32,000 nt of DNA from Clostridiales bacterium (GCA_015056175.1 SVGT01000013.1:6984-38983); one strand, 5' to 3'. Shown: positions 5,633 through 30,492, counted from the first letter of the stretch. Numbers and translations are program-made. The notes: generated from the letters alone by a model not told the origin.

Positions 5633-6468
5633 CCCTGCTCGTGCCTGACGACGTCGCGAAGGGCGGCGATATGCGCACAGGTGGTGCCGCAGCAGCCGCC
5701 CACGAAGGAGGCATAGGCAAGCGCCGGGGTCATATCGCGGCCGAACATCTCCGGGGTATAGGGGCTTACCGCCTTGCCGTCCACCATCTGGGGAAGGCCG
5801 GCGTTGGGCTTGAAGAGCAGGGGAAGATCGGTATGCTGGCGGAAGGCTTTGAGCACGGGCAGGCAAAGCTCCGGCCCCATGGAGCAGTTGAGCCCCAGGG
5901 CAGCGGGATGGAGGGGAGCAAGCGCCTCCACCATATCGCAAACGGAATTGCCCATCATGGTTTTGCCCACCTTTTCAAAGCTCATGGACAGGTACAGGGG
6001 AAGATCGTACCTTACGGCGCAGCGGGCGGCCACGGAGAGCATATTGAGGTCGATAAACGTTTCCAGAAAAATGCCGTCGGGCTGCTCTTTGACGCCGGCT
6101 TCCAGCATCTGGGCGTAAATCTCCTCGCACTCGTCCTCTTCAATATCGCCGTAGGGCTCCAGAAGACCGGTCAGCGGGCCTATGTCCAGCAGCACTTTGG
6201 CTTTGCCCTGGGCGGCATCTTTGGCGATGGCCATGCCCTCCCGCACGGCCTGTTCCACCGTGTAGGCGGTGCGTTTGACCTCCGGGCCGTTGGCGCCGAA
6301 GGTGTTGGAGAGGATCATGTCCGCGCCGGCTGCAATCATATCCCGATGCACCTGGTGCACCAGATCGGGGGCAAGCATATTATAGCGCCACACGGGCTGT
6401 TTATCCTCCGTCAGCGCCCACAGGCTGGTGCCCATGGCGCCGTCAAGCAGGGTGATGTGCCGATCCAT
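5629..6468 (-). CDS. homocysteine S-methyltransferase family protein
   Basis: Start refined to 6468 (AAAGGAG, 8 nt, ATG). Reads MDRHITLLDGAMGTSLW, and the C-terminal GGCCGTTCAHIAAL provides the Zn-binding Cys pair typical of Pfam S-methyl_trans. Confidence 0.85.
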   Translation of the reverse strand: MDRHITLLDGAMGTSLWALTEDKQPVWRYNMLAPDLVHQVHRDMIAAGADMILSNTFGANGPEVKRTAYTVEQAVREGMAIAKDAAQGKAKVLLDIGPLTGLLEPYGDIEEDECEEIYAQMLEAGVKEQPDGIFLETFIDLNMLSVAARCAVRYDLPLYLSMSFEKVGKTMMGNSVCDMVEALAPLHPAALGLNCSMGPELCLPVLKAFRQHTDLPLLFKPNAGLPQMVDGKAVSPYTPEMFGRDMTPALAYASFVGGCCGTTCAHIAALRDVVRHEQG

Positions 6469-6484
6469 AAACAAAACTCCTTTG

Positions 6485-8005
6485 TCAGCGGGCGATGATA
6501 TCCACATTGCGCAGAAACACGCCGGGCAGCGAGATGGCCGATACGAAGGTATCCGGCTGGCTGCTGTCGATGAAGAAGCAGACCTGGCTGATATTTTCCA
6601 ATTCCGTCAGGGTATTGACCATGGCGTACACCATGAGCCGCTCCTCCTGCACGGACATGTGGGCGGCGATATCCCGGAAGCGCTGGGTGAGGTTGACAAG
6701 GGCGGTGCCGCCGCTGCAGGCGGTGCCCAGAATATCGCCTGCGCCGGCGCCTGCGGGCATGACGGGGGACAGATGATCGTTTCCGGCGTCGTAATAATCC
6801 GGGCCCTTGATGAGCTGGGTGATGAGGTAATGGGCGTTGGGCGCTTCGTACCAGGGCACGGCGCGGTAGACAGGAGCCAGGGTGTTATCGTCGGAAGCGA
6901 AGTACAGTTTGGCGCGGGACAGAAGGAAAACGCCAAACTGGCTGCGGCGCATCACGCCGTTTGCAAACAGCATGGTTTCGCCGGCGCCCTGATAGGTGCC
7001 CTCGGGGGTGAGGGAGGTGATCTTTTCATCGCCGATGAACATTTCCACGCCTGCGATATTGGGCAGGTACGTGGTCATGGTATAGACCAGAGAGGCCGCC
7101 ATGCAGGAGCGGGTGACGCCCTCGTCCAGCAGCGCCGCGTTCAGATCCTGAGAAAAGCGGAGGGTGAGCACCTTTTCGCCGGAGGTCTCGTTGACGGCGG
7201 GCTCGGTGGCAAGGTACACATGCAGCGGCGGGAAGGCGGGCAGGTCGGTAAGCACCTTGGGGCCTTCGGACAGGGCGTCCAGCAGCGTTCGGGCCATGTG
7301 GGGCAGCGCCGCATTGGAAAAGGCCAGCGTGCGGTTTTCACACAGCACGCCCCGGCCCCCTGCGGCGGGGAAATACAGCGTTACATCCTGCACCAGACGG
7401 CGACTTCCGTCGGCTGCGCTGCGCTGGGAAAGGGCGCGGTCCCACAGGGTGCTCAGATCGTCGGTGGAATTGAGATGCAGCGCACCGGTGGGCGTTTCCG
7501 AGGCTACGTCCAGGCCGGGCTGCACGCCGGCGATAAGGAGATTCACGCTGTCGATGCCGTCGCACCGGCACAGCGTGTTGGCGATGGCCTGGAACACGGT
7601 GTACAATTGCTCGTGGCTCAGCGTCAGCGCCGTGGCGGACAGATTGACCGTGGCAACGCCGCAGGAGATTTCAACCGGGCTTTGCAATTTCAGCGCATCT
7701 GCGCGGGGCAGGGGCTTAGCTTCATCGCCCTCATAGGCAAAGAGCATCTCCAGCAGCGTATCCGCATGCCAGCGGAAGGGGCTCAGCTCCGCTCTCCGGT
7801 TTACGGCCACAAGACGGGTGCCGTCGATGGACGGCAGGTACAATTGCACCGTGGCGGCGCGGGCGTTTTCCATCTGGCCCATGGGCGCCTGGAAGGATAC
7901 CTGCATGGGCGGCAGCGTGGCGCTCTCCTGGGGCAGGGCGTCTTTGGGCGTTGCGCAGCCGGTGAGCATCAGCACAAGGCAAAGGATGGGGATAAGCTTT
8001 TTCAT
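6485..8005 (-). CDS. GerMN-domain lipoprotein (sporulation/germination GerM-like)
   Basis: The lipoprotein signal is MKKLIPILCLVLMLTGC. GerMN-like blocks are present (YRAVPWYEAPNAHYLITQLIKGPD...GGTALVNLTQRF). Confidence 0.75.
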   Translation of the reverse strand: MKKLIPILCLVLMLTGCATPKDALPQESATLPPMQVSFQAPMGQMENARAATVQLYLPSIDGTRLVAVNRRAELSPFRWHADTLLEMLFAYEGDEAKPLPRADALKLQSPVEISCGVATVNLSATALTLSHEQLYTVFQAIANTLCRCDGIDSVNLLIAGVQPGLDVASETPTGALHLNSTDDLSTLWDRALSQRSAADGSRRLVQDVTLYFPAAGGRGVLCENRTLAFSNAALPHMARTLLDALSEGPKVLTDLPAFPPLHVYLATEPAVNETSGEKVLTLRFSQDLNAALLDEGVTRSCMAASLVYTMTTYLPNIAGVEMFIGDEKITSLTPEGTYQGAGETMLFANGVMRRSQFGVFLLSRAKLYFASDDNTLAPVYRAVPWYEAPNAHYLITQLIKGPDYYDAGNDHLSPVMPAGAGAGDILGTACSGGTALVNLTQRFRDIAAHMSVQEERLMVYAMVNTLTELENISQVCFFIDSSQPDTFVSAISLPGVFLRNVDIIAR

Positions 8006-8023
8006 GGCAGACTTCCGTTTCTG

Positions 8024-8983
8024 TCAGTTGGCGGCCGCAAACAGGGCCGTAAGATGATCGTAGGGGATGCGCCACAGGCCGTTTTCCGAAACCAGATGCA
8101 GCGGGAAGGCGGGGAGCATCACGTCCTGCCCGTCCGCATGGAGCACAAGATCGCAGCTGAACACGGCGCGATGGCCGTCGTGGCTGACCACGCCGGGGCT
8201 GAGTGTAAAGGACAGGAGCGCGGGGGACAGATCAAACTGTTCGTAGGCCTGATTCTGCCCCGGGCGCATATCGCCCTGATCGCCCGTGGCGGCCAGATGC
8301 TGGTACAGTTCCTCATGGCTGCGGCGCATCCATGCGTCCAGCACCTGACAGGCGGTATTGTAGGGGGTGAGCAGCACGCTTTCGTCCCGGGTGATGGGGC
8401 CAAGGGGCGTGTCATCCTCCGTATCGCGGAAAAAGGAGGCGGGCAAACGCAGGGAGGTGACGGCGTCGGCGCTGCGGTCCACCAGCACCTGCACCCGGGT
8501 GCAAAGGCCGCACTCGGTGAGGGTATTGACCAGGGACGCCATGCACAGCTTTCGGCGCAGGATGAATTCGTCATTGCCCGTGCCGCCGCTTTCGCCGGGG
8601 TAGCGGGAAAGCAGCGCATCGTTAAAGGTGAGGAACAGCGTGCCCTCCTGCCGGGCGGCGGACAGCACCTGGGTATCCGGCGGGAAGAGGGAGGTGAGGG
8701 ACACGCTCGCCGCCTCGGGGCCATCAATCAGCGCCTCCACCACGGCTTTTTCCGGCGCATCGCTGCGGGCAAGGTCTATTTTCCGCTCCTCGGCAGCCAG
8801 ATAGGCGCTGTCCTGATAACGGAAATAGAGGCGCACGGTCAGATCATCATCCGCAGGCGTCTCCTGAAAGCTTTCGGCAAGGGAGGGCGCGGGGGAAGGA
8901 TCGTGAGGCAGGGAGGCTTGACTTTTACAGCCTGTGAGCAGCAGGCACAAAAGCAGGGGAAGGACAAGGTATATGCGTTTCAT
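8024..8983 (-). CDS. GerMN-domain lipoprotein
   Basis: Start refined to 8983; the ATG overlaps the upstream TGA by 1 nt. The signal is MKRIYLVLPLLLCLLLTGC. The GerMN block reads RLYFRYQDSAYLAAEERKIDL...AVVEALIDGP...GTLFLTFNDAL. Confidence 0.8.
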   Translation of the reverse strand: MKRIYLVLPLLLCLLLTGCKSQASLPHDPSPAPSLAESFQETPADDDLTVRLYFRYQDSAYLAAEERKIDLARSDAPEKAVVEALIDGPEAASVSLTSLFPPDTQVLSAARQEGTLFLTFNDALLSRYPGESGGTGNDEFILRRKLCMASLVNTLTECGLCTRVQVLVDRSADAVTSLRLPASFFRDTEDDTPLGPITRDESVLLTPYNTACQVLDAWMRRSHEELYQHLAATGDQGDMRPGQNQAYEQFDLSPALLSFTLSPGVVSHDGHRAVFSCDLVLHADGQDVMLPAFPLHLVSENGLWRIPYDHLTALFAAAN

Positions 8984-9839: not shown

Positions 9840-10637
9840 ATGCGCACGCAGTACAAACGCATCCGGGTGCGAAAAAGGCGGCGGGGATGGCTGGTGGCTC
9901 TGTGTATCGCGGTCATATTGCTTGGGGCGTACCGCCTTTTTGCAAGGCAGCCGCAGCCGCTTGCGCTGTCCATGCGATCTGCGCAGACAGAAAGCACGGT
10001 GCGCACCTACACCCTGGAGGGCATGCGCTGGTATGCGCTGAGCCTGGGCGCCTGCGAGGATGGAGCGCAGGCGATAGACATGGCGCAGGCGTATCAAAAA
10101 CGGGGCGCGGCAGGCTATATAGACAGCTTGCATCAGGTGCTGGCTGCGGCCTACGACACCCGGGAAAGCGCCCTATTGGTACAGCAGAATTTGCTCAGGT
10201 ACCACGGGGTGGAAACGGTGGTGCAGGAGATATATTCGCCTTCCGTGACGGTTGAAATGACGGGGCTTGAAAGCAGGAGCCAGGCGCTGTGCGAGGGGTA
10301 TGACCTGCTCTGTGCCATGGCGGGGGAAATGTACCGCCTTTCGCTGCAATTGGACAAAGGCGAAACGGACGCCCCGGCAGCCAAAGAACGGCTGCTTTCC
10401 TACCGGCGCACGGCGCAGGAGCTGTGCGTGAAGCTGACGGCGGCCTTTGGGGGCGATACGCTGCCCAAGGAGGCGTTGCACGTGCACACATTGCTTACGG
10501 ATTTTGCGGACGTGATGCAAAGGGGGATCGACGCGGAAAGCCCGGTGCTGTTGGGAGGCATGGTCAAATACGCGCAGATCCTGTGCATCGCGGGGCTGCA
10601 GGCGCACAAGGATCAGTACCTGATCAGTTCCCGGTAA
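9840..10637 (+). CDS. membrane-anchored protein with a SPOR-like domain
   Basis: Start refined to 9840 (GGGGG, 7 nt, ATG). It has a basic N-terminus and one TM (WLVALCIAVILLGAY). The segment WYALSLGACEDGAQAIDMAQAYQKRGAAGYIDS..VLAAAYDTRESALLVQQNL resembles a SPOR repeat. Confidence 0.6.
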   Translation: MRTQYKRIRVRKRRRGWLVALCIAVILLGAYRLFARQPQPLALSMRSAQTESTVRTYTLEGMRWYALSLGACEDGAQAIDMAQAYQKRGAAGYIDSLHQVLAAAYDTRESALLVQQNLLRYHGVETVVQEIYSPSVTVEMTGLESRSQALCEGYDLLCAMAGEMYRLSLQLDKGETDAPAAKERLLSYRRTAQELCVKLTAAFGGDTLPKEALHVHTLLTDFADVMQRGIDAESPVLLGGMVKYAQILCIAGLQAHKDQYLISSR

Positions 10638-12009
10638 TGACGGGACGGGCGGGCGCATCGCACTTGTGGCAGGCCAGCAGGTTTTTGAAGGTGGTATTGT
10701 TGATATCGGAGAAGTAGAAGGCCTTGAGTGGCAGATATTCCTCCGCAACGGAGTAGCAATCCTCCTTGGCGTGGTAGTACAACCCGCCGTCGGGATTGTA
10801 ATACAGCAGCATATTGGCGGACATGGTGGGCGCTTCCGTAGGCGCCTGGGTGGGCACGAAGGGAATGGTGCCCGCCTCCTGATCGCCGGGCTGGGGCGTG
10901 GTCTGCATCTTGGTGGCGCCCAGGGAGTTGGGATCCACATACCAGGTATCGTTGATGCGCAGCATGAGCACCTGCATCTGGTAATAGGCAGGCTCGCTGG
11001 TGTTCTTTTTGTCAATGAGCACGGTGAGGGTCACGGTGCGGGAGGTATCGGCCTCGCTCCCCGAGATCTTTTCCACGGTGTAGCTCATGGGGGTGCGGTT
11101 GGCCAGGAGGATGAACAGCTCGGACTTGGGATTTTCCAAATTATTCACCCAGGAGGGCAGGCACAACTCCAGCATGGAATCCAGCTGGCTTTCGGCCCAG
11201 TAGTTCATGAAGGTATTCAGGCGCATGGAGGCCATGGAGGCGTCCGGGGAATCCGTGGCGGAAATTTCGGGCACGGAATCCTGGGGGGTATCGTCCGTCT
11301 GGGGGTTCTGGGCGGATACGGAGTTCAGGGCGCTGTCGCCGCCAAAGAGGGCGGAGGCGTCCACATTGCCGGAGGCCGCGAGGCTGTCCCGGGCGGGCAG
11401 GGAAAAGAGCAGCGCCACGGCGATGACCACCAGCAGCGCGCCGTAGATCAGCGCCAGGGTGTAGCGGGCGTTTTTGCTGAAGGGACGGGCAAAGAGCAGA
11501 ATGCCGATGACCGCAAGGGCGCAGGCGATGAACACGCCGTGGAGCACCACATTGCCCATCAAAAGCGCCAGCAGGAACAAAACGGGCAGCGCCAGTGTGA
11601 CCACGGCGATGAGCCAGTTATAGCTCTTGCGGCGGGCGGGCTGCTGTACCTGCTGCTGCGACTGCGCCTGGGAGGTAAAGTGCTGCTGATAGGGCTGCTG
11701 GGGCGCAGGGTTTGCAAACTGCTGCTGGTAGGGGTTCTGGTAGGGCGGCGTCTGGTACGGCTGCCCGTAGGGCTGCTGATAGGGCTGCTGGGGGGCAGGA
11801 TTTGCAAACTGCTGCCCGTATTGCTGCTGCTGGGGATATTGCTGCTGGGGCGCTTGCCCGTATTGCTGCTGCTGCATCTGAGGCGCGTTTTGCGCCTGGG
11901 TCTGCGGCTGCCGGGGCTGCTGGGGCGCGCTTTTTTGCAGGGGTTTATTTTTTAGTCCGTACAGCGGGGCGCTGGTATAGCGGTTGCGGTTGGAGCTCAC
12001 AAAAGTCAT
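10624..12009 (-). CDS. membrane protein with a Q/P/Y-rich repetitive N-terminus and an extracytoplasmic C-terminal domain
   Basis: Starts at the ATG at 12009 (a GTG at 12000 is also possible). Low-complexity QQPYQQ repeats are followed by 3-4 TM helices (NWLIAVVTLALPVLFLLALLMG...) and then a globular C-terminus ending in a CHKC motif. Confidence 0.7.
   Translation of the reverse strand: MTFVSSNRNRYTSAPLYGLKNKPLQKSAPQQPRQPQTQAQNAPQMQQQQYGQAPQQQYPQQQQYGQQFANPAPQQPYQQPYGQPYQTPPYQNPYQQQFANPAPQQPYQQHFTSQAQSQQQVQQPARRKSYNWLIAVVTLALPVLFLLALLMGNVVLHGVFIACALAVIGILLFARPFSKNARYTLALIYGALLVVIAVALLFSLPARDSLAASGNVDASALFGGDSALNSVSAQNPQTDDTPQDSVPEISATDSPDASMASMRLNTFMNYWAESQLDSMLELCLPSWVNNLENPKSELFILLANRTPMSYTVEKISGSEADTSRTVTLTVLIDKKNTSEPAYYQMQVLMLRINDTWYVDPNSLGATKMQTTPQPGDQEAGTIPFVPTQAPTEAPTMSANMLLYYNPDGGLYYHAKEDCYSVAEEYLPLKAFYFSDINNTTFKNLLACHKCDAPARPVITGN
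11683..11815 (-). repeat. intragenic direct repeat (43-nt units, 90-nt period)
   Basis: 11683-11725 and 11773-11815 match at 41/43 nt. Both encode QQFANPAPQQPYQQ on the minus strand. Confidence 0.8.
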
Positions 12010-12091
12010 CCTTTCTTTATGGAAGAAAATGCGTTTTTGCACGCATAAAGCGCATGGGAAAGCCGCCCTCCGACGGAAGGGGGCATCTTCC

Positions 12092-12119
12092 AGTATATCA
12101 TGATTTAACAAAATGTAAA
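12092..12119 (-). promoter_or_regulatory. candidate promoter of the Q/P-rich protein gene
   Basis: On the minus strand: TTTACA (12119-12114), 16-nt spacer, TATACT (12097-12092). Confidence 0.4.
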
Positions 12120-12316: not shown

Positions 12317-13750
12317 ATGTCGGAACGGACAAAGGCGCAGGGCAGGTTTAACAAATGGCTCTGCGGACTGTTTGACAGTGAGATGTTTACCACCAAGGAA
12401 CTGCTGGGCATGTTTTTTCCCCTTTTGCTGGACCAGTTCTCCATCCACATTATCGGCGTTTTATCCTCCTCGCTGGTCTCCTCGGTAGGCCAGGAAGCCA
12501 TCGCTGCCGTCAGCATGGTGAACTCCATGGGCTTTCTGGTGACGGCCGTCATGTTCGCTCTGGGCGCGGGCGGCGGCGTGGTGATCGCCCAGGCCAAGGG
12601 CAGCGGCGATGAAAAACGGCTGCGCCATGCCGTGGGCAATACCACCATGCTGGCCACCGGCTGCATGCTGGTGCTCTCTACGCTGCTGTACACGTTTGCA
12701 GAGCCTGTGGTGGGGATCATCTACCCCAACGCCGAGCCCATCCTGAAGGAATACGCGGTGCACTACCTGAAGCTGAACATGCTCTCCCAGGTGCCCTACG
12801 CCGTGTTCCACGCCATTTTTACCTCCTTCCGCAGCGTGGGCGACAGCAAATCCTCCCTGGTGCTGACCATCTTCATCAACGTGAGCCATCTGCTTTTGTC
12901 CCTTTTGTTCATCAACGTGCTGGGCATGGGCGTGACGGGCTCCGGGCTTTCGCTGATCGTGGCCCGCTCCATCGGCTGCGTGGTGGCCCTGATCTGGATC
13001 TTCCGTCCCCGGGGCTACCTGCACATTTCCGTGCACGACTTTTTCAAGTGGGATTTGTCCACGGTGAAGCCCATTGTGAAGCTGGGCATTCCCTTCTGCA
13101 TTGAGCAGATTTTGTTCCAGGGCGGCATGCTGATGGTGCAGGGGTATCTCAGCTCCTGGGGCGATACGCCGCAGATGGGCACCATGGCCCTGGCGGCTCA
13201 CGCCGTGGCCTCCTCCCTGATGAACCTGTACCAGGCCAGCGCCAACTGCGTGACCACCATGACGGGCACGGTGTGCGGCCAGTGCATCGGCGCAGGCAAA
13301 ATTGAGCTGTGCAAGCGCTACAACCGCAGCATGATCAAGGGCGGCAGACTGGTGCTGCTCATCACCGTGCTGGTGCTCTTCCCGCTTTCTCCCCTGCTGC
13401 TCAAGCTCTACCACCCCAATCCCGACGCCATGGGCATCATCTACAGCATTCTGGCGGTGGCCGTGCTGCCCATGCCCATCGTGTGGTGCAACGCCTTTGT
13501 GACCCCCACCATGCTGCGCAGCGCAGGCGACGTAAAGTACACCACCTACGTATCGCTGCTGGTGATGGTGATCGGCCGCGTGGTGCTGGGCTACATCTTC
13601 ACCATTGTGTTCAACCTGGGCCCTGTGGGCGTGTGGCTGGGTATGCTGGTGGAATGGCTCATCCGCGTGGTGCTGATGGAAAAGCGCTTCAAGAGCGGAA
13701 AATGGACCGCCTTCATCGAGGAAAAATACAGGCAAAAGCCCGCAGGCTAA
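12317..13750 (+). CDS. MATE family efflux transporter (paralog 1)
   Basis: 477 aa with about 12 TM helices. MATE-like blocks are present (PLLLDQFSIHIIGVLSSSLVSSVGQEAIAAVSMVN, ...VGVWLGMLVEWLIRVV). RBS AAGGAAGG. Confidence 0.9.
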   Translation: MSERTKAQGRFNKWLCGLFDSEMFTTKELLGMFFPLLLDQFSIHIIGVLSSSLVSSVGQEAIAAVSMVNSMGFLVTAVMFALGAGGGVVIAQAKGSGDEKRLRHAVGNTTMLATGCMLVLSTLLYTFAEPVVGIIYPNAEPILKEYAVHYLKLNMLSQVPYAVFHAIFTSFRSVGDSKSSLVLTIFINVSHLLLSLLFINVLGMGVTGSGLSLIVARSIGCVVALIWIFRPRGYLHISVHDFFKWDLSTVKPIVKLGIPFCIEQILFQGGMLMVQGYLSSWGDTPQMGTMALAAHAVASSLMNLYQASANCVTTMTGTVCGQCIGAGKIELCKRYNRSMIKGGRLVLLITVLVLFPLSPLLLKLYHPNPDAMGIIYSILAVAVLPMPIVWCNAFVTPTMLRSAGDVKYTTYVSLLVMVIGRVVLGYIFTIVFNLGPVGVWLGMLVEWLIRVVLMEKRFKSGKWTAFIEEKYRQKPAG

Positions 13751-13879: not shown

Positions 13880-13915
13880 GGAACTTGCACAATATGATGG
13901 AGGATGAGATTTTTT

Positions 13916-15349
13916 ATGTCCGAACTGACGCCTGCGCGCGGCCCCAGGGGTAAATTCAACGGCTGGCTTCACCGCCTGTTTGACAGCGAAATGTTTACGA
14001 CCGGGGACATCCTGCGCATGTTTTATCCGCTGATGCTGGATCAGTTTGCCATTCACCTGATCATGACGCTGAGTACGTCGCTGGTGTCCTCGGTGGGTCA
14101 GGAGGCGCTGGCTGCCGTCAGCATGGTGAACACCCTTTCCTATGTGGTGACGGCCGTGATGTTTGCCCTCAGTGCGGGCGGCGGCGTGATCATCGCCCAG
14201 GCCAAGGGCAGCGGCGATGAGGACAGGCTGCACAAGGCCATTGCCACCACGGCCATGATCTCCTCTGCCGTGATGCTGGTTTTGTCCATCACGCTGACGG
14301 CGTTGGCAGGGCCTATCATTGAGCTTTTGTATCCCCACGCAGAGCCGCTGCTCAAGGAATACGCCGTGCACTATATGCGCCTGAACATGCTCACCCTCTG
14401 GCCCTTCTCCATTTTCCACGTGATCTTTACCGCCTTCCGCAGCGTGGGCGACAGCAAATCCTCCCTGATTCTGACGCTGTACATCAATATCAGCCATCTG
14501 CTTTTGTCCCTTCTGTTCATCAACGTGCTGGGCATGGGCGTGACGGGCTCCGGGCTTTCGCTGATCGTGGCCCGCGTCATCGGCGCCATTGTGGCCATGG
14601 TGTGGCTCTTTGGCCCCATGGGCAAGCTGCACATGAAGCCCCGGGCGTTTCTGAAGCTGGATAAAAAGATGGCAAGGCCCATCCTGCGCCTGAGCATTCC
14701 CTTCTGCGCAGAGCAGATGCTCTTTGAAGGCGGCATGGTGGTGGTGCAGGGGTACCTGAGCACCTGGGGCGATACCCCCGAAATGAGCACCATGGCGCTG
14801 GCGGCCCATGCGGTGGCCTCCTCGCTGGTCAGCCTGTATCAGGCCACCGGCTACTGCATCACCCAGATGACCAGCACGGTGTGCGGCCAGTGCATCGGCG
14901 CGGAGAAGATCGACCTGTGCAAGCGGTACAACCAAAGCATCATCAAGGGCGGCAATCTGATCTACCTGATCACGGTGCTGGTTTTGTTCCCCCTGACGCC
15001 GCTGCTGATGAAGCTGTACAACCCCAACCCCGACGCGCTGGGCATGATCTACGTGATGCTGATGGTGGGCGTGTTCCCCATGCCGCTGATCTGGTGCAAA
15101 TCCTTTGTCACCTCCACCACCATGTGCGCCGCAGGCGACGTGAAATTTGCCACCTACGTATCCTTTGTGGTGATGCTCATCGGCCGCATGGCGCTGGGCT
15201 ATGTGCTGACCATCACGCTGAACCTGGGCCCGGTGGGCATCTTTATCGGCATGCTGGTGGAATGGCTGTTGCGCATCCCGGCGGTGGAATGGCGCTACAG
15301 ATCGGGCAAGTGGCTGAACTTCCTCAAGCAGGAAAAGGCGGCCGGTTAA
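13916..15349 (+). CDS. MATE family efflux transporter (paralog 2)
   Basis: Start refined to 13916 (MSELTPARG..FNGWL aligns with MSERTKAQGRFNKWL of paralog 1). It is collinear with paralog 1 over its whole length. Confidence 0.9.
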   Translation: MSELTPARGPRGKFNGWLHRLFDSEMFTTGDILRMFYPLMLDQFAIHLIMTLSTSLVSSVGQEALAAVSMVNTLSYVVTAVMFALSAGGGVIIAQAKGSGDEDRLHKAIATTAMISSAVMLVLSITLTALAGPIIELLYPHAEPLLKEYAVHYMRLNMLTLWPFSIFHVIFTAFRSVGDSKSSLILTLYINISHLLLSLLFINVLGMGVTGSGLSLIVARVIGAIVAMVWLFGPMGKLHMKPRAFLKLDKKMARPILRLSIPFCAEQMLFEGGMVVVQGYLSTWGDTPEMSTMALAAHAVASSLVSLYQATGYCITQMTSTVCGQCIGAEKIDLCKRYNQSIIKGGNLIYLITVLVLFPLTPLLMKLYNPNPDALGMIYVMLMVGVFPMPLIWCKSFVTSTTMCAAGDVKFATYVSFVVMLIGRMALGYVLTITLNLGPVGIFIGMLVEWLLRIPAVEWRYRSGKWLNFLKQEKAAG

Positions 15350-16244: not shown

Positions 16245-17267
16245 TCAGGCCTTCAGGCCGTTGATATGGATAAATTTCTCAAACTCGGGCAAAATGCCCA
16301 CGCCGTCCGGGTAATGGGCGGCAAACTGAGGAATGGCGTGGCTGGGGAAGGAATTGCCCTCGATGAACACGGGGCCGTCTGTCGTGATGGCCACGTCCCA
16401 GGCCACAAAGCGCACCTGGGGCACCTTGTGCATGGCCTCCAGGCACATCTCCCTGGCCTCCTGCCAGTAGGGGATCTCAAAGCCCACGATGGGCGTGCCG
16501 GTCATGGGATGGGTATCAAACACGTTGCCCTGCTTATCGGCGGCCACGGTCTTGAGCACGCCGGAAGCCAGATCCACCCGGGCGGCCATGCCGCCGCAGT
16601 CCACATTATCCATCACCTTGCCGTTGCCGATGCGGATGAAGGCGTACACGATGCCCTCCTGCTTGTCGCCAAGCAGCGTGGCGATGCGGATGGTATTGAC
16701 CGAGGTGGGGCAGAGGGAGGCCATTTTGGGATGCTGGACGACCAGCTCCTCCAGAATGCCGTCGCCCATCGAAACAAGCTGATCGCGGAAGGCGTCCACA
16801 TGCTGCCAGTCATCCTTTGTAAACTTCACAATGCCCTGACCGGAAGAGCCTTCCAGCGGCTTATAGAGGATCACGTCATGACGGCTGAGGAAGGCGGCAA
16901 GCTCATCCGCAGCGGTATCCGCCGTCATTTTCATCCAATCCCGGCGCACCTGCGCGGCAAAGAGCGTGTTGAACTCCGTTTTATCGTCAAAATGATGCCA
17001 GTAGGCCTTATCGTTCATGTTTTTGACGATGCGGTTGGAAATGCCGCGGGTGATCACCGTGCGCTTCTGGGCGTCGCTGAGCCTATACATCTCGGCGATC
17101 TTATAATCCACGTAGCCCGCGTTATAGCGAAGGGCGCAGTTCAGCATGTCCTTCAGCAGCCAGGCCGTGCTTTTGCCCGTCTTTTTGTGCAGCATGCGGG
17201 CGGTCTGCAGCATGCGCTTCCAGTCCATTTTGGCGGCGCGCTTGGCAAGATAGGAAAGTTTGGACAT
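16245..17267 (-). CDS. ATP-grasp enzyme of the sugar-transfer-associated type (ATPgrasp_ST-like)
   Basis: 340 aa. The N-terminus AKRAAKMDWKRMLQTARMLHKKTGKS..LLKDMLNCALRYNAGYVDYKIAEMY and the block SSGQGI...TIRIATL are as I recall for Pfam PF14397. RBS GAGGTG. Confidence 0.75.
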   Translation of the reverse strand: MSKLSYLAKRAAKMDWKRMLQTARMLHKKTGKSTAWLLKDMLNCALRYNAGYVDYKIAEMYRLSDAQKRTVITRGISNRIVKNMNDKAYWHHFDDKTEFNTLFAAQVRRDWMKMTADTAADELAAFLSRHDVILYKPLEGSSGQGIVKFTKDDWQHVDAFRDQLVSMGDGILEELVVQHPKMASLCPTSVNTIRIATLLGDKQEGIVYAFIRIGNGKVMDNVDCGGMAARVDLASGVLKTVAADKQGNVFDTHPMTGTPIVGFEIPYWQEAREMCLEAMHKVPQVRFVAWDVAITTDGPVFIEGNSFPSHAIPQFAAHYPDGVGILPEFEKFIHINGLKA

Positions 17268-17312
17268 GATTTAGTCACCTCTGACGGAGGAAGTTTGATG
17301 GCGTGGGGACTT

Positions 17313-17971
17313 GGGGCTGTCCGCCCCAAACCCCGACCAGGAGGCTGAGCCTCCTGGACCTGCAGTGTTGGACGGACAAGCGTTATCATCCGGATTGCTT
17401 CCCAATGCGGCGGGCACTGTAGGGCGGGGGCTTGCATGCCTTTTTTGTTTGGGAAAAATGAGCGGATTTGTTGGGACATGTTGGAGCGATCCGCCGTTTT
17501 TTCCGTTTACGGAAAAAACGGGAACTTCATCGGCCAAGACCGTGAGAGAATGCATTCTCTCCACGGCTTGGATCGATGAAGGAGGCGCAGACGCGCAAAG
17601 CGCGTCCTGCCCCGGCGGATCGCCGCAGCGATGAATGTTGTTTTCAGATAAAAACAAGGGGACTGGTTGCGATTATAACAACAAGAAATAAGCGGAGCGG
17701 CAGCGGGAAGCTGACAGGAAATGTGTACAACCATGTCCGCTGCTGTGGGTGCAGGGGAACGGAGCCGAAGCGCGCCCTGGCCGGGCGGATCGCCGTAACG
17801 ATGAGTAGGGTTGGGGTATCTTCTCTACTGTTTTATCGGGAAATAGTATGAAATATCTTGTACCTGTGTCCGAAACGGTGGGTCAAGGGTGCTCAGCACC
17901 CTTGTAGGGGTCCAGGGGGCAACGCCCCCGGAAGTCCCTGCCGGGGGGGTGTGGGGCTGAGAAAGCCCCAC
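17313..17971. repeat. copy A of an ORF-free, hairpin-dense intergenic element of about 650 nt (unclassified; structured RNA or MITE-like)
   Basis: It shares ordered blocks with 29821-30461: 43/43 nt (17336-17378), 19/19 nt (17417-17435), 58/60 nt (17472-17531) and the right-end block (17933-17971). It has many perfect hairpins and no RBS-preceded ORF. Confidence 0.75.
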
Positions 17972-18023
17972 AAAGTCCCCGTTACGGGAGAAATGCAATC
18001 CTGATTTGGGCGAAAGCGAAGCG

Positions 18024-19121
18024 TTACACGTTGAAGCGGAACAGGGTGATATCGCCGTCCTGCATGACGTATTCCTTGCCTTCGGAGCGGATGAGGCCCT
18101 TTTCGCGGCAGGCGGCCATGCTGCCCAGCTCGTGCAGCGTATCAAAGGGCACGATCTCGGCGCGGATGAAGCCCCGTTCAAAATCGGTATGGATCTTGCC
18201 TGCGGCCTGGGGCGCCTTGGTGCCGCGGGTGATGGTCCAGGCGCGGCACTCGTCTTCGCCTGCGGTGAGGAAGGAGATGAGGCCCAGCAGCTTGTAGCAG
18301 GCCTTGACCAGACGGTCCAGACCGCTTTCGCCAATGCCCAGATCCTCCAGGAACATGGCCTTTTCATCGCCCTCCATCTGGGCGATCTCCTCCTCGATCT
18401 GGGCGGAGATGACCAGCACCTGAGCGCCTTCTGCATCGGCGGCGGCACGCACCTTGCCGACGAAGGGGTTGTTTTCTTCGGGCTCTGCCACCATATCTTC
18501 TGCGATATTGGCGGCGTAGATCACGGGCTTGGTGGTGAGCAGGAACCAGCCGCGGATGGTTTCCTGTTCTTCCTCATTGCAGGGGAAGGTGCGGCCGGGC
18601 TTGCCTTCTTCCAGATGGGTGAGCAGGCGCTGGGCCAGCTCCGCCTCGATCTGGTACTTTTTATCGCCGGTCTTGATCATCTTCTGGGCCTTTTCCATGC
18701 GCTTCTGCACGCTTTCCATATCGGCGAAGATGAGCTCCAGATTGATGGTTTCCATATCGCGGGCGGGATCGATGGAGCCGTCCACGTGGATGATGTTTTC
18801 ATCCTCAAAGCAGCGCACCACATGCACGATGGCGTCCACCTCGCGGATATGGGAGAGGAACTTGTTGCCCAGACCCTCGCCCCGGCTGGCGCCCTTCACC
18901 AGACCTGCAATATCCACAAATTCGATGACCGCGGGGGTCACCTTCTTAGGATGGTACATTTCATCCAGAACATGCAGCCTTTCATCCGGCACAGGCACGA
19001 TGCCCGTGTTGGGCTCGATGGTGCAGAAGGGATAGTTGGCCGCCTGGGCGCCCGCGCCGGTGATGGCGTTGAACAGCGTGCTTTTGCCCACGTTGGGCAG
19101 ACCTACGACGCCTAATTTCAT
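18024..19121 (-). CDS. ychF: redox-regulated/ribosome-binding ATPase YchF
   Basis: Start refined to 19121. Reads MKLGVVGLPNVGKSTLFNAIT...ANYPFCTIEPN...VDIAGLVKGAS...TAGEDECRAWT...FIRAE, and is full-length and canonical. Confidence 0.95.
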   Translation of the reverse strand: MKLGVVGLPNVGKSTLFNAITGAGAQAANYPFCTIEPNTGIVPVPDERLHVLDEMYHPKKVTPAVIEFVDIAGLVKGASRGEGLGNKFLSHIREVDAIVHVVRCFEDENIIHVDGSIDPARDMETINLELIFADMESVQKRMEKAQKMIKTGDKKYQIEAELAQRLLTHLEEGKPGRTFPCNEEEQETIRGWFLLTTKPVIYAANIAEDMVAEPEENNPFVGKVRAAADAEGAQVLVISAQIEEEIAQMEGDEKAMFLEDLGIGESGLDRLVKACYKLLGLISFLTAGEDECRAWTITRGTKAPQAAGKIHTDFERGFIRAEIVPFDTLHELGSMAACREKGLIRSEGKEYVMQDGDITLFRFNV

Positions 19122-21694: not shown

Positions 21695-22777
21695 ATGGAA
21701 TATTTGGTTTCAGAATATCTCGCATCCGAGACCATAGACCCACTTTTCTTGGTGGGAGATGCTCTTGATGTATTAAAAAATATTCCAGATAACAGCATTG
21801 ATTGTTGTATAACAAGTCCTCCTTATTGGAACAAGAGACAATATGCAAATGGCGGAATAGGTCTGGAAAAGGATTACAATGACTATATTTCCGCACTTGT
21901 TGAAATATTTATGGAAGTACACCGAGTATTAAAACCAACTGGTTCTTTCTGGCTCAATATTGGCGATACTTACCACAAAAAATCATTGCTCAATATTCCT
22001 TGGAGAGTTGCAATTGAATTGACTGACCGAGGGTGGATTCTTCGTAATACTGTCATATGGAACAAAGTAAAAGGCGGTTTAGATAATACTGAAGACCGTT
22101 TAAGAAACATCTATGAACCTGTTTTTCATTTCGTAAAAAAAGCAAAGGGATATTATTACGATATTGACAGTGTAAGAAACACACCGCAAAGCACAAAGGT
22201 TGTAAAAGGTGCAGTGGTCTCTGCGACAGGGGTTACGGGTGTTAGCTACAAAAGAAAAATAGAGTTATCAACTGTGCTGACAGATGAGCAAAAGAAGAAT
22301 GCTTATGCAGCACTTGAGGATATGCTGGAAAAGGTCCGTCTTGGCGAAGTGTCAGATTTTAGAATGATAATCAAAGGAGCTCAGCGAACCACTCATTCTG
22401 ATTCTGAAAAGGTTTCCGGTCGTGCAAAGGAACTGCATGAAAAAGGATTCTATTTCTTAAAGTGCAATCCTAAAGGGAGCAAACCCTCCGATGTTTGGGA
22501 TATACTGCCAGAAGATACTCAAAAGCGAACCACTCATTTTGCACCTTATCCAGAAGATTTGTGCCGAACACCAATTATACTTACCTGTCCCAAAGATGGT
22601 GTTGTACTTGACCCATTTGCAGGAACAGGAACCTCTTGTTTGGTTGCATTAGAATACAACAGAAAATCAATCGGCATAGAAATCGCAGATGAATATGTGG
22701 TAGCTGCCAAAGAAAGATGCCAAAAGAAGGTGGAAGATTATGAGCAAAGTCAAAGAACTATTTGGGATTTATTGTAG
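21695..22777 (+). CDS. type II DNA methyltransferase, beta class (N4-cytosine or N6-adenine; SPPY favours m4C)
   Basis: Motif IV is DCCITSPPYWN near the N-terminus and motif I is VLDPFAGTGTSCLVA near the C-terminus (IV before I, so beta order; Pfam N6_N4_Mtase-like). RBS AGGAGG. The DNA is AT-rich. Confidence 0.9.
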   Translation: MEYLVSEYLASETIDPLFLVGDALDVLKNIPDNSIDCCITSPPYWNKRQYANGGIGLEKDYNDYISALVEIFMEVHRVLKPTGSFWLNIGDTYHKKSLLNIPWRVAIELTDRGWILRNTVIWNKVKGGLDNTEDRLRNIYEPVFHFVKKAKGYYYDIDSVRNTPQSTKVVKGAVVSATGVTGVSYKRKIELSTVLTDEQKKNAYAALEDMLEKVRLGEVSDFRMIIKGAQRTTHSDSEKVSGRAKELHEKGFYFLKCNPKGSKPSDVWDILPEDTQKRTTHFAPYPEDLCRTPIILTCPKDGVVLDPFAGTGTSCLVALEYNRKSIGIEIADEYVVAAKERCQKKVEDYEQSQRTIWDLL

Positions 22778-23576
22778 TGAAAATGCAAATGTGACTGGTG
22801 CTCTCGCCTCTCAAATCTGTCCATACTCAAATAAAAAGTGCTATAAAACGAGAAAAAGTGACCCCGATACTGCAATAGGCACTTGTACTGTTTCGTATCA
22901 AAACAAAGACATTATTATCTGTCCTAATCGTTTAACGGAAAACAGTCAAATATTTATGGATTGCATCCATCTCCTCACATTGCACGAACCAGGCAATGAA
23001 CTCTATGTTCTCCCCGAAATTTCAATTCCTGGTGGCAATGTTGACTATTTCCTTGTTTCTGTGAAAGATGGCAAGGTAAAAGATTTCATTGGAATTGAAC
23101 TGCAGACCATGGATACAACAGGCACAGTTTGGCCTGAAAGACAGAAACTGCTTAATGAATACGGCATTGCCGTTGATGAAGCAGATGTTAGAAACACAAA
23201 GTCTTTCGGAATGAACTGGAAAATGACTGCAAAGACCATTCTGATTCAGATGCACCACAAGACAAAAACATTTGAGAATTTGAACAAGCATCTTGTTCTG
23301 ATTATTCAGAAACCGTTTTTTGAATACATGAACAGAGAGTTTTCGTTCGCTCACATAACCGGTGCCAGAATTGGAGACTCCGCACATTTCCATTCTTATG
23401 ATTTTAAGAATATTGGTAATAGATTAAAACTGACCTTGGACACCAGAGTAAGTACAGATTCTGATGGTATTTTTCAATGTCTCGGTCTTAATGCCGAAGC
23501 AAACGTTGCACTCGAAGATATAATTGCAACTCTTGAGAAAAAACTAAGTGAAGAGTATCTGCTCAGACTGCAATAA
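22740..23576 (+). CDS. type II restriction endonuclease, NotI-family-like
   Basis: It overlaps the methyltransferase gene by 38 nt and has RBS GGTGGA 5 nt upstream. The N-terminal Cys cluster is ICPYSNKKCYK...GTCTV...ICPNRL and the block IGIELQTMDTTG follows. These resemble the CPF..C.K..GVC..CPNR and LEIQTMDFHG blocks I recall from NotI. Confidence 0.7.
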   Translation: MSKVKELFGIYCSENANVTGALASQICPYSNKKCYKTRKSDPDTAIGTCTVSYQNKDIIICPNRLTENSQIFMDCIHLLTLHEPGNELYVLPEISIPGGNVDYFLVSVKDGKVKDFIGIELQTMDTTGTVWPERQKLLNEYGIAVDEADVRNTKSFGMNWKMTAKTILIQMHHKTKTFENLNKHLVLIIQKPFFEYMNREFSFAHITGARIGDSAHFHSYDFKNIGNRLKLTLDTRVSTDSDGIFQCLGLNAEANVALEDIIATLEKKLSEEYLLRLQ

Positions 23577-25671: not shown

Positions 25672-26298
25672 ATGGCTCGAAAATGCCATAACGGCTGCGG
25701 ATATGCATGCGGCGGCTTTGTGCCGTGGAACGGCTGCGGGAATACCTGTGGGAATACGTGTGGGAATACCTGCGGGAATACTTGCGCAAATACCTGTGTC
25801 AACGGCTGCACGGAGGCTTTCCGGTTTGATCAGAATTGTCCCTTTCAGGGCAGCTGTCCCTATCCCATGACCTTTGAGGAAATGCTGCAGCTGCTCCGCA
25901 CGCTGCGCTACGGACGGCTTGCGGTGTGCGCAAACGGCCAGAGCTACGTGACGCCGGTGTGCTTTTCCATGCGCCGGTGCGAGGATACGCCCATCTTTAC
26001 TTTGCGGCTGCGCACGGACGGCTGCATCGCCGGACATCTGGAAAACGGCACCCAGGTCACCTTGCAGTTTGACCGGATGGTGAACGGCGGCGTGTGCACC
26101 GTGCAGGCTATGGGTCAGGCTTATGTGACGGGCAGCACGGGGTGCGTGGCCATTGTGGAGGTACGCACGGACAGCATGATGGGCGAGTGCTACCGCAATC
26201 AGGGCTGCGGAAACAACTGCGGCAACAATTGCGGGAACAACTGCGGGAACAATTGCGGCAATAACTGCGGAAATCCCTGCGAAAACCCCTGCAAGTAA
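25672..26298 (+). CDS. pyridoxamine-5'-phosphate-oxidase-like (split-barrel flavoprotein) domain protein flanked by CGNx Cys-rich repeats
   Basis: The N-terminus reads GCGNTCGNTCGNTCGNTCANTCVNGC and the C-terminus GCGNNCGNNCGNNCGNNCGNNCGNPCENPCK. The core (MTFEEMLQLLRTLRYGRLAVCANGQSYVTPVCF...VTLQFD...) resembles the Pyridox_ox_2/PNPOx-like fold. Confidence 0.7.
   Translation: MARKCHNGCGYACGGFVPWNGCGNTCGNTCGNTCGNTCANTCVNGCTEAFRFDQNCPFQGSCPYPMTFEEMLQLLRTLRYGRLAVCANGQSYVTPVCFSMRRCEDTPIFTLRLRTDGCIAGHLENGTQVTLQFDRMVNGGVCTVQAMGQAYVTGSTGCVAIVEVRTDSMMGECYRNQGCGNNCGNNCGNNCGNNCGNNCGNPCENPCK
25746..25820 (+). repeat. 12-nt periodic coding repeat (CGNT x ~6)
   Basis: The units are tgcgggaatacc / tgtgggaatacg / tgtgggaatacc / tgcgggaatact / tgcgcaaatacc / tgtgtcaacggc. 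The differences among the first four (CGNT) units are all synonymous; the last two degenerate to CANT and CVNG. Confidence 0.85.
26206..26292 (+). repeat. 12-nt periodic coding repeat (CGNN x 5, then CGNP and CENP)
   Basis: The units are tgcggaaacaac / tgcggcaacaat / tgcgggaacaac / tgcgggaacaat / tgcggcaataac / tgcggaaatccc / tgcgaaaacccc. Confidence 0.85.
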
Positions 26299-26304
26299 GG
26301 GAGA

Positions 26305-28565: not shown

Positions 28566-29750
28566 TCACTCCCAGTGCGCTTTGGTTTTGTGCATGTGAT
28601 CCAGCACGAACTGTACAAACATTTCGGCGCCGTAGTGCAGACCGCTTTCGTCGATCTGCCACAGCGGGGAATGGGCGGGGTATTTGCAGCCCGTTTCTTC
28701 GTTGCGCAGGCCCAGGCCGAACAGCAGGCCCGGCTTGTGCTTTTCATAATAGGCAAAGTCCTCGCCGCCGGGAGAGGGCTCCAGCACGGCGACCTTGTCC
28801 GTCACCTTGGCGGCGGATTCAAGGAACATATCGTACATCTTGCTGTCGTTATAGGCGGGGGGCAGGGGATCCTGGGCGAAGGTCACTTCGCCCGTGCCGC
28901 CCATGTCGTCACAGACACTTTTCACCAGACGGCGGATGCGCTCCTGCATTTGATCGCGGGTGGATTCCTTGAGGCAGCGCATGGAGCCGCGCATGTGGCA
29001 AAAATCCGGCACCTGGGCGATGGTCTTGCCGCTTTCCATCACGCCCACGCCCAGCACGCAGGTATCAAAGGGGTCTACCTCCCGGCTGATGAGGAACTGC
29101 AGCCCGTCGTAGATCCTGACGCCCATGGCCAGGGCGTCCTTGCCCAGATGGGGCGCTGCCACATGGGCGGCCTCGCCGTGGGTCGTGATCTCAAAGGCGC
29201 AGGAGGTGGCGTTGGTGATGCCGCTGCAGGAATTGATGACGCCGGTCTTTTCCACGCAGTTGACGTGGCACATGATGATGCAGTCGATATCGTCCATCAC
29301 GCCGTGCTTGCACATCACCTGTGCGCCGGAGGGCTTGTTTTCCTCGCAGGGCTGGAACACCAGCCGCACGCGGCAGGCCAGCTTGTCCTCGATTTCCTTC
29401 AGCGCCTTGGCGGCGCCCAGCAGCATGGCGGTGTGGGCGTCGTGACCGCAGGCGTGCATCTGGCCGTCGATCTTCGAGCGGAAGGGCAGGCCGTTTTCCG
29501 CCTCCTGGATGGGCAGCGCGTCCATATCCGCACGGATGCCGATGGTGAAAGCGGCGTCCTGCCTGCCCAGGGTGGCGACCACGGTGTTGCGGCCGTATTT
29601 TTCAAAATCATAGGAAATGCCCAGCTTGTCCATCTCGCGGCGGACAAGGGCGCTGGTTTTGTCCAGATCCCAGCCGAGCTCCGGGTACATGTGCAGCTCC
29701 CGGCGGAGGGCAACAATATAGTCCTGATCGACCTTGAAAGGAATGTGCAT
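28566..29750 (-). CDS. M20/M20D family amidohydrolase (N-acyl-amino-acid/hippurate-hydrolase type)
   Basis: Start refined to 29750 (AGGAGG, 5 nt, ATG). LRRELHMYPELGW...IGIRADMDALPI...HACGHDAHTAMLLGAA...VFQPCEE...HSPLW are the typical M20D blocks. Confidence 0.9.
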   Translation of the reverse strand: MHIPFKVDQDYIVALRRELHMYPELGWDLDKTSALVRREMDKLGISYDFEKYGRNTVVATLGRQDAAFTIGIRADMDALPIQEAENGLPFRSKIDGQMHACGHDAHTAMLLGAAKALKEIEDKLACRVRLVFQPCEENKPSGAQVMCKHGVMDDIDCIIMCHVNCVEKTGVINSCSGITNATSCAFEITTHGEAAHVAAPHLGKDALAMGVRIYDGLQFLISREVDPFDTCVLGVGVMESGKTIAQVPDFCHMRGSMRCLKESTRDQMQERIRRLVKSVCDDMGGTGEVTFAQDPLPPAYNDSKMYDMFLESAAKVTDKVAVLEPSPGGEDFAYYEKHKPGLLFGLGLRNEETGCKYPAHSPLWQIDESGLHYGAEMFVQFVLDHMHKTKAHWE

Positions 29751-29784: not shown

Positions 29785-29813
29785 ATGATACACCGAAACG
29801 GCAAATTGCGCAA
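29785..29813 (-). promoter_or_regulatory. candidate promoter of the M20 operon, between the gene and repeat copy B
   Basis: On the minus strand: TTGCGC (29813-29808), 17-nt spacer, TATCAT (29790-29785). Confidence 0.45.
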
Positions 29814-29820
29814 GCCTTGC

Positions 29821-30461
29821 GGGGGCGTTGCCCCCTGCACCCCTACCAGGAGGCTGAGCCTCCTGGACCTGCAGTGTTGGACGGACAGGTCTGATCGATT
29901 GAGATGTTTCCCAATGGGACAATACGGGGAAACGGAATGAAAAATGAAGGAATGAAGCGTGCCATGCGGCACATGAAGCACGTTCCTTTAGAACGCGTTG
30001 CGGCTTTACAGCCGCTGTAGGGCGGGGGCTTGCTCCCGCCACTTTGTTTGGGAAAAGCCAATGGGTTGAGTGGGACATGTTTGAGCGATCCGCAGTTTTT
30101 TCCGTTTACGGAAAAAACGGGAACTTCATCACCAAGAGCAGGAGCAAATGAATTTGCTTCCTGCCTTGGTTGATGAAGGAGGCCAGACGCGCAAAGCGCG
30201 CCCTGGCCCGGCGGATCGCCGTATCGATGAGTAGGGTCTCTTTCCGGCAACAGTGTTTCACGGGGAAAATGCATGTGGAACGGTGTACCTGTGTCCCGAA
30301 TGGCGGGTGCAGGGGGACGGAGCCGAAGCGCCGCCGGTGGCGGATACAGCGAGGCGGAGGAGTCAACCGAAACGAGCGATCGACCGGCAGGGAGAGCGCG
30401 ACGATTGAGGTTGCGGAAATCAGTACCCTGCCTGGGGGTAGTGGGGGCAAGGAGCCCCCAC
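29821..30461. repeat. copy B of the ORF-free, hairpin-dense element of about 650 nt
   Basis: It has the same block order and orientation as 17313-17971, with identical 43-mer 29845-29887, 19-mer 30015-30033, 60-nt block 30071-30130 and right-end block 30422-30461. It carries an extra segment of about 90 nt (29917-30014). Confidence 0.75.
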
Positions 30462-30492
30462 AAAAAAACCCCGCCTTCCGAAGAAGACGGGG
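30462..30492 (-). terminator. rho-independent terminator of the ROK gene
   Basis: On the minus strand: CCCCGTCTTC-ttcg-GAAGGCGGGG followed by T7, directly abutting the right end of repeat copy B. Confidence 0.8.

Follow-up and report, generated by a model that had tools for sequence, protein, structure and literature searches.

Extragenic palindromic repeat systems have been well studied in Proteobacteria; to our knowledge, as far as a limited literature search goes, none has been described in gut or rumen Clostridia. The TIRtron/TIRYT repeat families were reportedly described by Di Nocera et al. in 2013, and the BOX, Correia and ERIC elements are 100–300 nt long with short plain inverted ends, Correia elements with a TA duplication. 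The nearest known kinds to the elements discussed here are the REP/REPIN/BIME sequences with RAYT and the TIRtron families (PMC6006769, PMC3733652, PMC3116915). A REP-type unit is defined by GTAG or GTGG placed 0–2 nt 5' of a hairpin with a 7–20-bp basal stem and a 2–5-nt loop (PMC6006769), and a GTAG-tagged REP-type hairpin unit is also defined in PMC3733652.

The analyses presented here demonstrate that a module with two hairpins forms both ends of a previously undescribed non-coding, hairpin-packed repeat family. Two copies lie in the 32,000-nt stretch of DNA that was analysed (the window), which is part of the 49,993-bp contig Ga0318466_10015655 of JGI metagenome 3300031555. Copy A (about 17300–17975) and copy B (about 29810–30465), both non-coding and roughly 650 nt long, are situated, respectively, between an ATP-grasp gene (16245–17267, minus strand) and ychF (18024–19121, minus) and between an M20 peptidase gene (28566–29750, minus) and a ROK-family gene (30516–31898, minus). 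Their features are as follows.

17300–17378, + strand: copy A left module, in five parts
17300–17312, + strand: outer shared tract GGCGTGGGGACTT of that module
17313–17327, + strand: its hairpin 1, GGGGC-TGTCC-GCCCC
17328–17336, + strand: its linker AAACCCCGA
17337–17357, + strand: its hairpin 2, CCAGGAGGCT-G-AGCCTCCTGG
17358–17378, + strand: its tail ACCTGCAGTGTTGGACGGACA
17417–17440, + strand: copy A GTAG-tagged GC hairpin unit (CTGTAGGGCGGGGGCTTGC...), decayed
17486–17623, + strand: copy A core, a predicted four-way junction whose closing helix pairs GCGATCCGC (17486–17494) with GCGGATCGC (17615–17623) and which contains a T/A hairpin TTTTTTCCG-TTTA-CGGAAAAAA, a long hypervariable hairpin and a GACGCGC-AAA-GCGCGTC hairpin
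17727–17804, + strand: inside copy A, a degenerate right-type module that lacks hairpin 2, then a repeat unit
17758–17804, + strand: second GCGCGCCCTGGCCGGGCGGATCGCCG..GATGA unit of copy A, a repeat of 17588–17634
17859–17942, − strand: copy A right module, inverted, the finding of the earlier note
17860–17883, − strand: tail of that module
17884–17904, − strand: its hairpin 2, CAAGGGTGCT-C-AGCACCCTTG
17905–17914, − strand: its linker TAGGGGTCCA
17915–17929, − strand: its hairpin 1, GGGGGC-AAC-GCCCCC
17930–17942, − strand: its outer tract GGAAGTCCCTGCC, inverted with respect to 17300–17312
17950–17974, − strand: outer hairpin TTTGTGGGGCTTTCTCAGCCCCACA, adjoining copy A
29810–29888, + strand: copy B left module (hairpin 1, linker, hairpin 2, tail)
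29821–29835, + strand: its hairpin 1, GGGGGC-GTT-GCCCCC, followed by linker TGCACCCCTA
29846–29866, + strand: its hairpin 2, CCAGGAGGCT-G-AGCCTCCTGG, followed by tail ACCTGCAGTGTTGGACGGACA
30015–30040, + strand: copy B GTAG-tagged hairpin unit CTGTAG-GGCGGGGG-CTTG-CTCCCGCC
30085–30219, + strand: copy B core, a predicted four-way junction with helices as in copy A
30283–30320, − strand: copy B degraded right-type module, hairpin 2 deleted
30312–30465, + strand: copy B distal segment (GGAGCCGAAGCGC, hairpin, ACAGCGAGGCGGAGG...) with terminal hairpin GTGGGGGCAAGGAGCCCCCAC

The long hairpin of the copy B core shows compensatory changes relative to copy A. The outer hairpin TTTGTGGGGCTTTCTCAGCCCCACA also adjoins a related element in locus L094, and the copy B distal segment recurs inverted in a third copy (copy C, below) and in L091, L092 and L094, and in L067 an inverted pair of such segments encloses a gene. 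In this last locus, from a related MAG, inverted units related to window 30312–30358 (at 4590–4740 and 5810–5960) flank a single 292-aa ORF, and tandem hairpin 2-type units are found at 7542–7590 of the same locus.

The window has other features of its own. Two blocks of 12-nt tandem repeats (TGCGGGAATACC-like, 25708–26304) fall largely within an ORF (25672–26298, + strand) of 208 aa, where they encode Cys-Gly-Asn-x runs of an unusual cysteine-rich repeat protein. Tandem paralogous genes (12317–13750 and 13904–15349; 73–77% DNA identity, 1608-nt period) are probably of MATE/MurJ type, as in L001. An N6/N4 methyltransferase gene (21695–22777) followed by a NotI-family endonuclease gene (22740–23576) makes up a restriction–modification pair at 21695–23576, identified from Pfam labels on L001 and L086. 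Within the minus-strand ORF 10624–12111, degenerate 39–57-nt tandem repeats (CTGCTGATAGGGCTGCTGGGG..., 11679–11928) point to a low-complexity domain of Gln-, Pro- and Tyr-rich repeats. No tRNA was found in the window.

The earlier note had seen the right end of copy A as an inverted copy of its own left-end module, and this observation is right and more general than was noted. The reverse complement of 17859–17929 (GGGGGCGTTGCCCCCTGGACCCCTACAAGGGTGCTGAGCACCCTTGACCCACCGTTTCGGACACAGGTACA) agrees with 29821–29869 at 42 of 49 positions without a gap, exactly the count claimed, and six of the seven mismatches (at 18, 27/45, 31/41 and 32/40) do make up three compensatory pairs in the 9-bp stem of hairpin 2. 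Within the window the pattern CCCCNAC-N8-TGA-N8-GACCNNCNGTNTNGGAC is met only at 17331–17373 (+), 29840–29882 (+) and 17868–17910 (−), the degenerate module pattern gave no match in 100 shuffles, and the longest inverted repeat of the window is the arm pair 17868–17934/29816–29882 (67 nt, 81%). The degraded version proposed for copy B at 30283–30320 is also real, keeping CCCCCTGCACCC and the tail GCCATTCGGGACACAGGTAC without hairpin 2, and copy A has a second degenerate version of the same kind at about 17727–17760.

A search for further copies, which the earlier note had proposed, yielded many, in unrelated intergenic contexts and in a phage. Copy C lies on the source contig (L086 1455–2335), in the orientation of A and B once the contig is turned, with an inverted module at each end and an interior arranged differently from both; the three copies stand on one contig between unrelated genes. 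Using the ATP-grasp protein, 80 related-species loci were fetched, all from uncultured Clostridia of ruminant and other guts and several of them labelled Christensenellales. Copies are present in L031, L040, L041, L044, L046 and L050 of related Clostridia (five genomes), and in the metagenome contigs L091–L094, reached via spurious ORFs translated from the elements; besides such ORFs, relatives were reached by following the source contig further (L086, L088) and by a module pattern relaxed to allow gaps of variable length. An iterated nhmmer profile of the module found 27 modules in related loci, and the relaxed pattern about 35 bona fide modules in IMG/VR viral contigs. Most modules form inverted pairs, 100–850 nt apart overall, so that the inverted architecture claimed for copy A holds across the family: it is seen in 11 convergent pairs in bacterial loci, 320–850 nt apart, and in viral contigs, where some pairs are only about 100 nt apart. 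The module positions of the bacterial pairs are as follows.

L031: 3758/4144 and 8682/9120
L040: 5753/6236
L041: 5935 (and 6053)/6254
L044: 5807/6292
L046: 5705/6187
L050: 10835/11239
L086: 1470/2320
L092: 1439/2254
L093: 156/730
Window: 17311/17929

In the viral contigs L113, L102, L131 and L173 the modules form tight inverted doublets, some about 100 nt across, that is, inverted units in many copies forming a hairpin doublet, as in REPINs. One of these (L113 11523–11629) is predicted by folding to be one long DNA hairpin (−60 kcal/mol, z = −9.2), and the smallest versions in the family are plain palindromes of roughly 120 nt. Phage L101 (= L155) carries two elements of roughly 700 nt, imperfect palindromes from end to end, which occupy otherwise unexplained gaps between ORFs whose translations resemble a ParA-type ATPase, a large terminase and a portal protein. 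In L101 the modules point outward and are followed by more inverted repeat, so that an element need not terminate at its modules and its true ends are undefined. No close relative of this phage without the elements was found.

Narrower searches returned little. The exact window-specific module pattern had no true copy in 185,579 species genomes, a weak negative, and in the JGI metagenome set it gave one chance match in AT-rich DNA (L085), a negative that is likewise weak because the source contig itself was also missed. In viral contigs, a strict module pattern gave only three chance matches inside a phage gene and the central T/A hairpin pattern gave none. Against curated phage and plasmid collections, blastn of copy A found nothing and the L113 doublet found only a chance Streptomyces match; a protein search with a 1,288-aa artificial query made of six-frame module translations also found nothing. 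Five database 'proteins' (P0001–P0005) are translations of elements, although for P0004 no contig of origin was found, and the C-terminus (…GLSAPDPDKGHDAP) of a gene called at L086 887–1516 is encoded by the right module of copy C; the repeats therefore contaminate gene calls. A comparison of the ORFs over the elements revealed none common to the copies, and a protein-coding element was rejected on this ground.

Across the family the module is about 65–80 nt long and its order is hairpin 1, ACCCCNAC, hairpin 2 and GACC[C/T]. Hairpin 1 reads GGGGN, loop, NCCCC and is followed by the C-rich linker A(A/G)ACCCCNAC; hairpin 2 reads (C/G)(C/A)AGG..., centre, ...CCT(G/T)(G/C) and is followed by ACC(C/T). 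The centre of hairpin 2 is strand-specific, being (T/C)GA and never TC(A/G) in module orientation. Left-type modules have CCAGG... in hairpin 2 and the tail ACCTGCAGT, and right-type modules have CAAGGG... and the tail ACCCAC; that the two types stay distinct across copies implies that whole two-ended units are copied. The left and right linkers are ACCCCNAC and GTNGGGGT, and L031b, where both arms read ACCTGC, is a case suggestive of covariation between the two within an element. The module pair is the constant feature of the family, and the modules are separated by other hairpin units that add up to between about 10 and about 700 nt, giving elements of up to 850 nt. An interior of the window type comprises a GTAG-tagged GC hairpin, the four-way-junction core and further units in varied order and orientation, with segments shuffled and inverted between copies; the predicted core consists of the closing helix GCGATCCGC/GCGGATCGC, the T/A hairpin, the long hypervariable hairpin and one more hairpin, whose apex reads GCAAAGC. 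Between the orthologous and otherwise near-identical elements of L044 and L046, one hairpin differs at its apex, GCAAAGC in L044 and GCTTTGC in L046, a small loop inversion.

How far do these elements resemble the described systems? Like BOX, Correia and ERIC, they are non-coding, intergenic and transposase-less, with inverted ends, variable inner modules and strong folding, but they show no duplication and their ends are covarying hairpin pairs. With REP, REPIN and BIME sequences they share GC-rich palindromic units that are extragenic, multi-copy and inverted in orientation, inverted doublets folding as one hairpin, mosaic arrangement, and structure kept while sequence changes. The inner unit 30015–30040, with GTAG immediately 5' of an 8-bp stem (one of the eight pairs being G·T) and a 4-nt loop, fits the REP definition, whereas the end module does not, its GT(A/C)G being 7 nt away from hairpin 1 and immediately following hairpin 2 on the 3' side. 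Further differences are that each end here is made of two different hairpins with conserved C-rich linkers, that the elements reach 850 nt with a predicted four-way-junction core, and that the hosts are uncultured Clostridia and viral contigs rather than Proteobacteria, with no RAYT gene found. TIRtrons likewise have terminal inverted repeats, some of them double palindromic, and occur as families with dimers and clusters (PMC3733652), but their GGGGWSAS motif is unmatched by the modules (GGGGTCCA, GGGGTGCA, GGGGACTT) and no TIRYT gene was seen.

The earlier note had proposed a MITE/PATE-like element with hairpin ends of the sort that Y1 transposases recognize. The part that stands is that the hairpin ends are inverted and belong to a repeat family whose mobility, present or past, is probable; PATE is the poor fit. 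PATEs of the IS200/IS605 group do resemble the elements in having hairpin-forming ends and no target duplication, but their left and right hairpins lie on the same strand, whereas the ends here are inverted copies; since IS200/IS605 ends are not inverted repeats, REPIN/BIME or TIRtron is closer. Membership was rejected for this reason and because no tnpA or tnpB relative was found with the ends. A classical DDE-type MITE was rejected too, the inverted ends being present without a target-site duplication and the physical ends being undefined. No tnpA, tnpB, RAYT or TIRYT gene accompanies the ends in the loci examined; a tblastn search of about 1.95 Mb of loci with an approximate IS200 TnpA query gave no credible Y1 match, and a weak one in L109 was dismissed as spurious, the region carrying phage lysis genes. 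A hairpin-recognizing, single-strand transposase is a plausible mobilizer, the link to Y1 enzymes being an inference.

The pairing statistics bear on whether the elements act as DNA or as RNA. One alternative, which we consider unlikely, is that they are a family of large structured non-coding RNA genes of 400–850 nt, comparable in size and habitat to ROOL or GOLLD, in which the end modules would serve as closing stems and side hairpins and the four-way-junction core as the functional centre. Both strands indeed fold far better than shuffles (z −6.7 to −12.5), 11 of the 55 pairs in the consensus four-way junction show compensatory changes, and copies A and B are closely preceded on the + strand by weak promoter-like sites. 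The core is more strongly conserved at its junctions, e.g. AAAAACGGGAACTTC, than in its stems, and its long hairpin varies, which is what a functional folded molecule would show and counts against a DNA repeat. Some known large RNAs likewise occur in rumen Clostridia and viral contigs; ROOL and GOLLD are of similar size, belong to the rumen and to Firmicutes, and are likewise present in phage DNA.

However, functional RNAs are normally rich in wobble pairs, concentrated on the transcribed strand, and in these elements there are hardly any G-U pairs, with neither strand favoured. In the 19 distinct versions of hairpin 2, 96.4% of cells are paired and six of the nine pairs change on both sides (35 cells), with no one-sided or G-U-type change; the covariation score is 0.53, as against 0.12 in shuffles (reached in 0 of 500) and at most 0.08 with the partners slid. 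The stems of 12 elements comprise 836 positions, with 802 Watson–Crick pairs, 10 G·T, 3 A·C and 21 other mismatches, and the core alignment has four G-U cells to four A-C cells. Near-perfect palindromes without wobble fit DNA hairpins better than RNA. Orientation speaks in the same sense: in L091 and L092a the core as a whole runs opposite to the end modules, the orthologous elements of L044 and L046 differ by their flipped loop, elements face both ways with respect to neighbouring genes, and copy C begins 15 nt past a stop codon, leaving no room for a promoter. Considering the few wobble pairs, the variable orientation and the position of copy C, we favour a DNA-level element. The absence of a terminator at a consistent end, the reshuffled and inverted interiors and the minimal versions that are plain palindromes also argue against RNA; while the covariation itself is strong, the elements lack the strand-biased G-U pairs and the fixed orientation with transcription signals by which structured RNAs are generally recognized. 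Nothing in the window and seven related loci matched Rfam 15 (including ROOL, GOLLD, OLE, HEARO and group II introns) at gathering thresholds, and at E up to 10 over copy A only noise appeared.

Three further candidates were set aside: a group II intron (GAGCCG is present, but without domain V pairing or an Rfam match), a 5' leader or riboswitch belonging to the genes downstream (orientation is variable and the neighbouring genes are unrelated), and a T-shaped parvovirus-like terminal repeat (the hairpin pair of a module is not enclosed by a flanking A/A' stem).

Covariation need not reflect selection alone, since template switching between hairpin arms gives a compensatory change in one step, and such one-step creation and repair of perfect hairpins is documented (PMC8794818). 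This lends something to another alternative, to which we give rather low credence, namely that the elements are host-kept, BIME-like clusters of extragenic palindromes that no longer move; their GC-rich hairpins might be kept as transcription barriers, mRNA-end stabilizers or nucleoid-protein sites, and the compensatory changes would then come from templated repair within hairpins and not from selection for transposition. The elements are strictly intergenic, often directly past a stop codon or terminator, and their alternating-orientation mosaic of unit types resembles BIMEs (PMC6006769). Copies within one genome are only about 80–85% alike and rearranged, so that any transposition was not recent, and the same site is occupied in L040, L041, L044 and L046, and another in L091 and L094, which points to long vertical retention. 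What such clusters leave unexplained is the two-ended architecture at many unrelated sites and in a phage genome, and the distinct left and right module types, with the copying of whole units that they imply.

The earlier note had also suggested looking for target-site duplications or a conserved target motif, and none appeared at the ends compared; around copies A and C and the L101 elements there is no direct duplication. Nor did a clean empty site come to light, the orthologous spacers being unalignable. In favour of mobility, ychF and the ATP-grasp gene are separated by a different spacer, of 200 nt, in L002, the closest species (85% protein identity). A tract CGCTTCGCTTTCGCCCAAATCAGGATT just past the ychF stop codon is common to L002 (3700–3900), L094 (1–170) and the window (17997–18023), as is a second tract, GGAATGAAATTTTCATCCG.CGGGACAAGCTCGCCTCC, and L094 has the two in the other order; spacers that look 'empty' therefore also hold repeat units.

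The elements also appear to take part in rearrangement. L091 has one element between relatives of the first gene (3–1289) and the 247-aa ORF (7799–8542) of L092, whereas in L092 these two genes are about 7 kb apart, each adjoined by an element (L092a and L092b), and the 247-aa ORF is reversed. The segment of about 7 kb between two inverted copies (L092 1439–9263) is inverted in comparison with L091 and L094, and it appears that this inversion arose by recombination between the two copies, which would explain the chimeric elements. L091 and L094 share a right flank that is 96% identical and differ beyond the element on the other side. We also considered an invertible DNA switch, in which the inverted modules would be the recombination sites and a recombinase would flip the segment between them. 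Inverted repeats do flank 300–800 bp of intergenic DNA beside gene starts in copies A and B, and the core occurs in both orientations among contigs, but L091 and L092a are inverted only in an inner segment, which recombination between separate copies explains; no recombinase gene lies near the copies, copy C lies between convergent gene ends, and typical invertase sites are much shorter and less structured than the modules. An invertible promoter switch was rejected on the first two of these counts, and we regard a switch of any such kind as very improbable.

Taken together, we suggest, with a probability of about 0.5, that the elements are a non-coding family of palindromic repeats with inverted module ends, acting at the level of DNA, non-autonomous and mobile or formerly mobile, of the MITE or REPIN/BIME kind. 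For mobility speak the dispersed and unrelated sites, the presence in several species and in a phage genome, the variable cargo between constant ends and the minimal doublets; against it speak the lack of a linked transposase, of a target duplication and of a clean empty site, and the age and divergence of the copies. Copying may involve a single-stranded DNA intermediate with both hairpins folded at each end, and the C-rich linkers of one end (ACCCCNAC, GACCC) could base-pair with their G-rich counterparts at the other. This fold would be acted on by a structure-specific enzyme whose gene lies elsewhere in the genome, the likeliest candidate being a Y1 HUH transposase of the RAYT/TIRYT type, and the palindromes may be maintained by selection for hairpin formation, by one-step templated repair of the arms, or by both.

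It is also conceivable, if rather doubtful, that the family represents a new class of large folded nucleic-acid elements of rumen and gut Clostridia and their phages, either a single-stranded DNA substrate of mobilization or a phage-associated RNA unrelated to any in Rfam. Its parts would be cloverleaf-like ends (two side hairpins and a long-range stem) and the four-way-junction core, and the single-stranded DNA substrate would be strand-specific, serving an undescribed mobilization system.

Finally, whichever reading applies, the family is abundant where it is present, with three copies in 50 kb and others on viral contigs, and it appears to drive a genome inversion. The 19 variants of hairpin 2, with no wobble intermediate, provide clear data on perfect hairpins kept during sequence turnover. 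The gaps of 400–850 nt that the elements fill may be mistaken for RNA genes or spurious ORFs, and, if a cognate enzyme exists, it would recognize a two-hairpin end, a new type of substrate for single-strand transposases.
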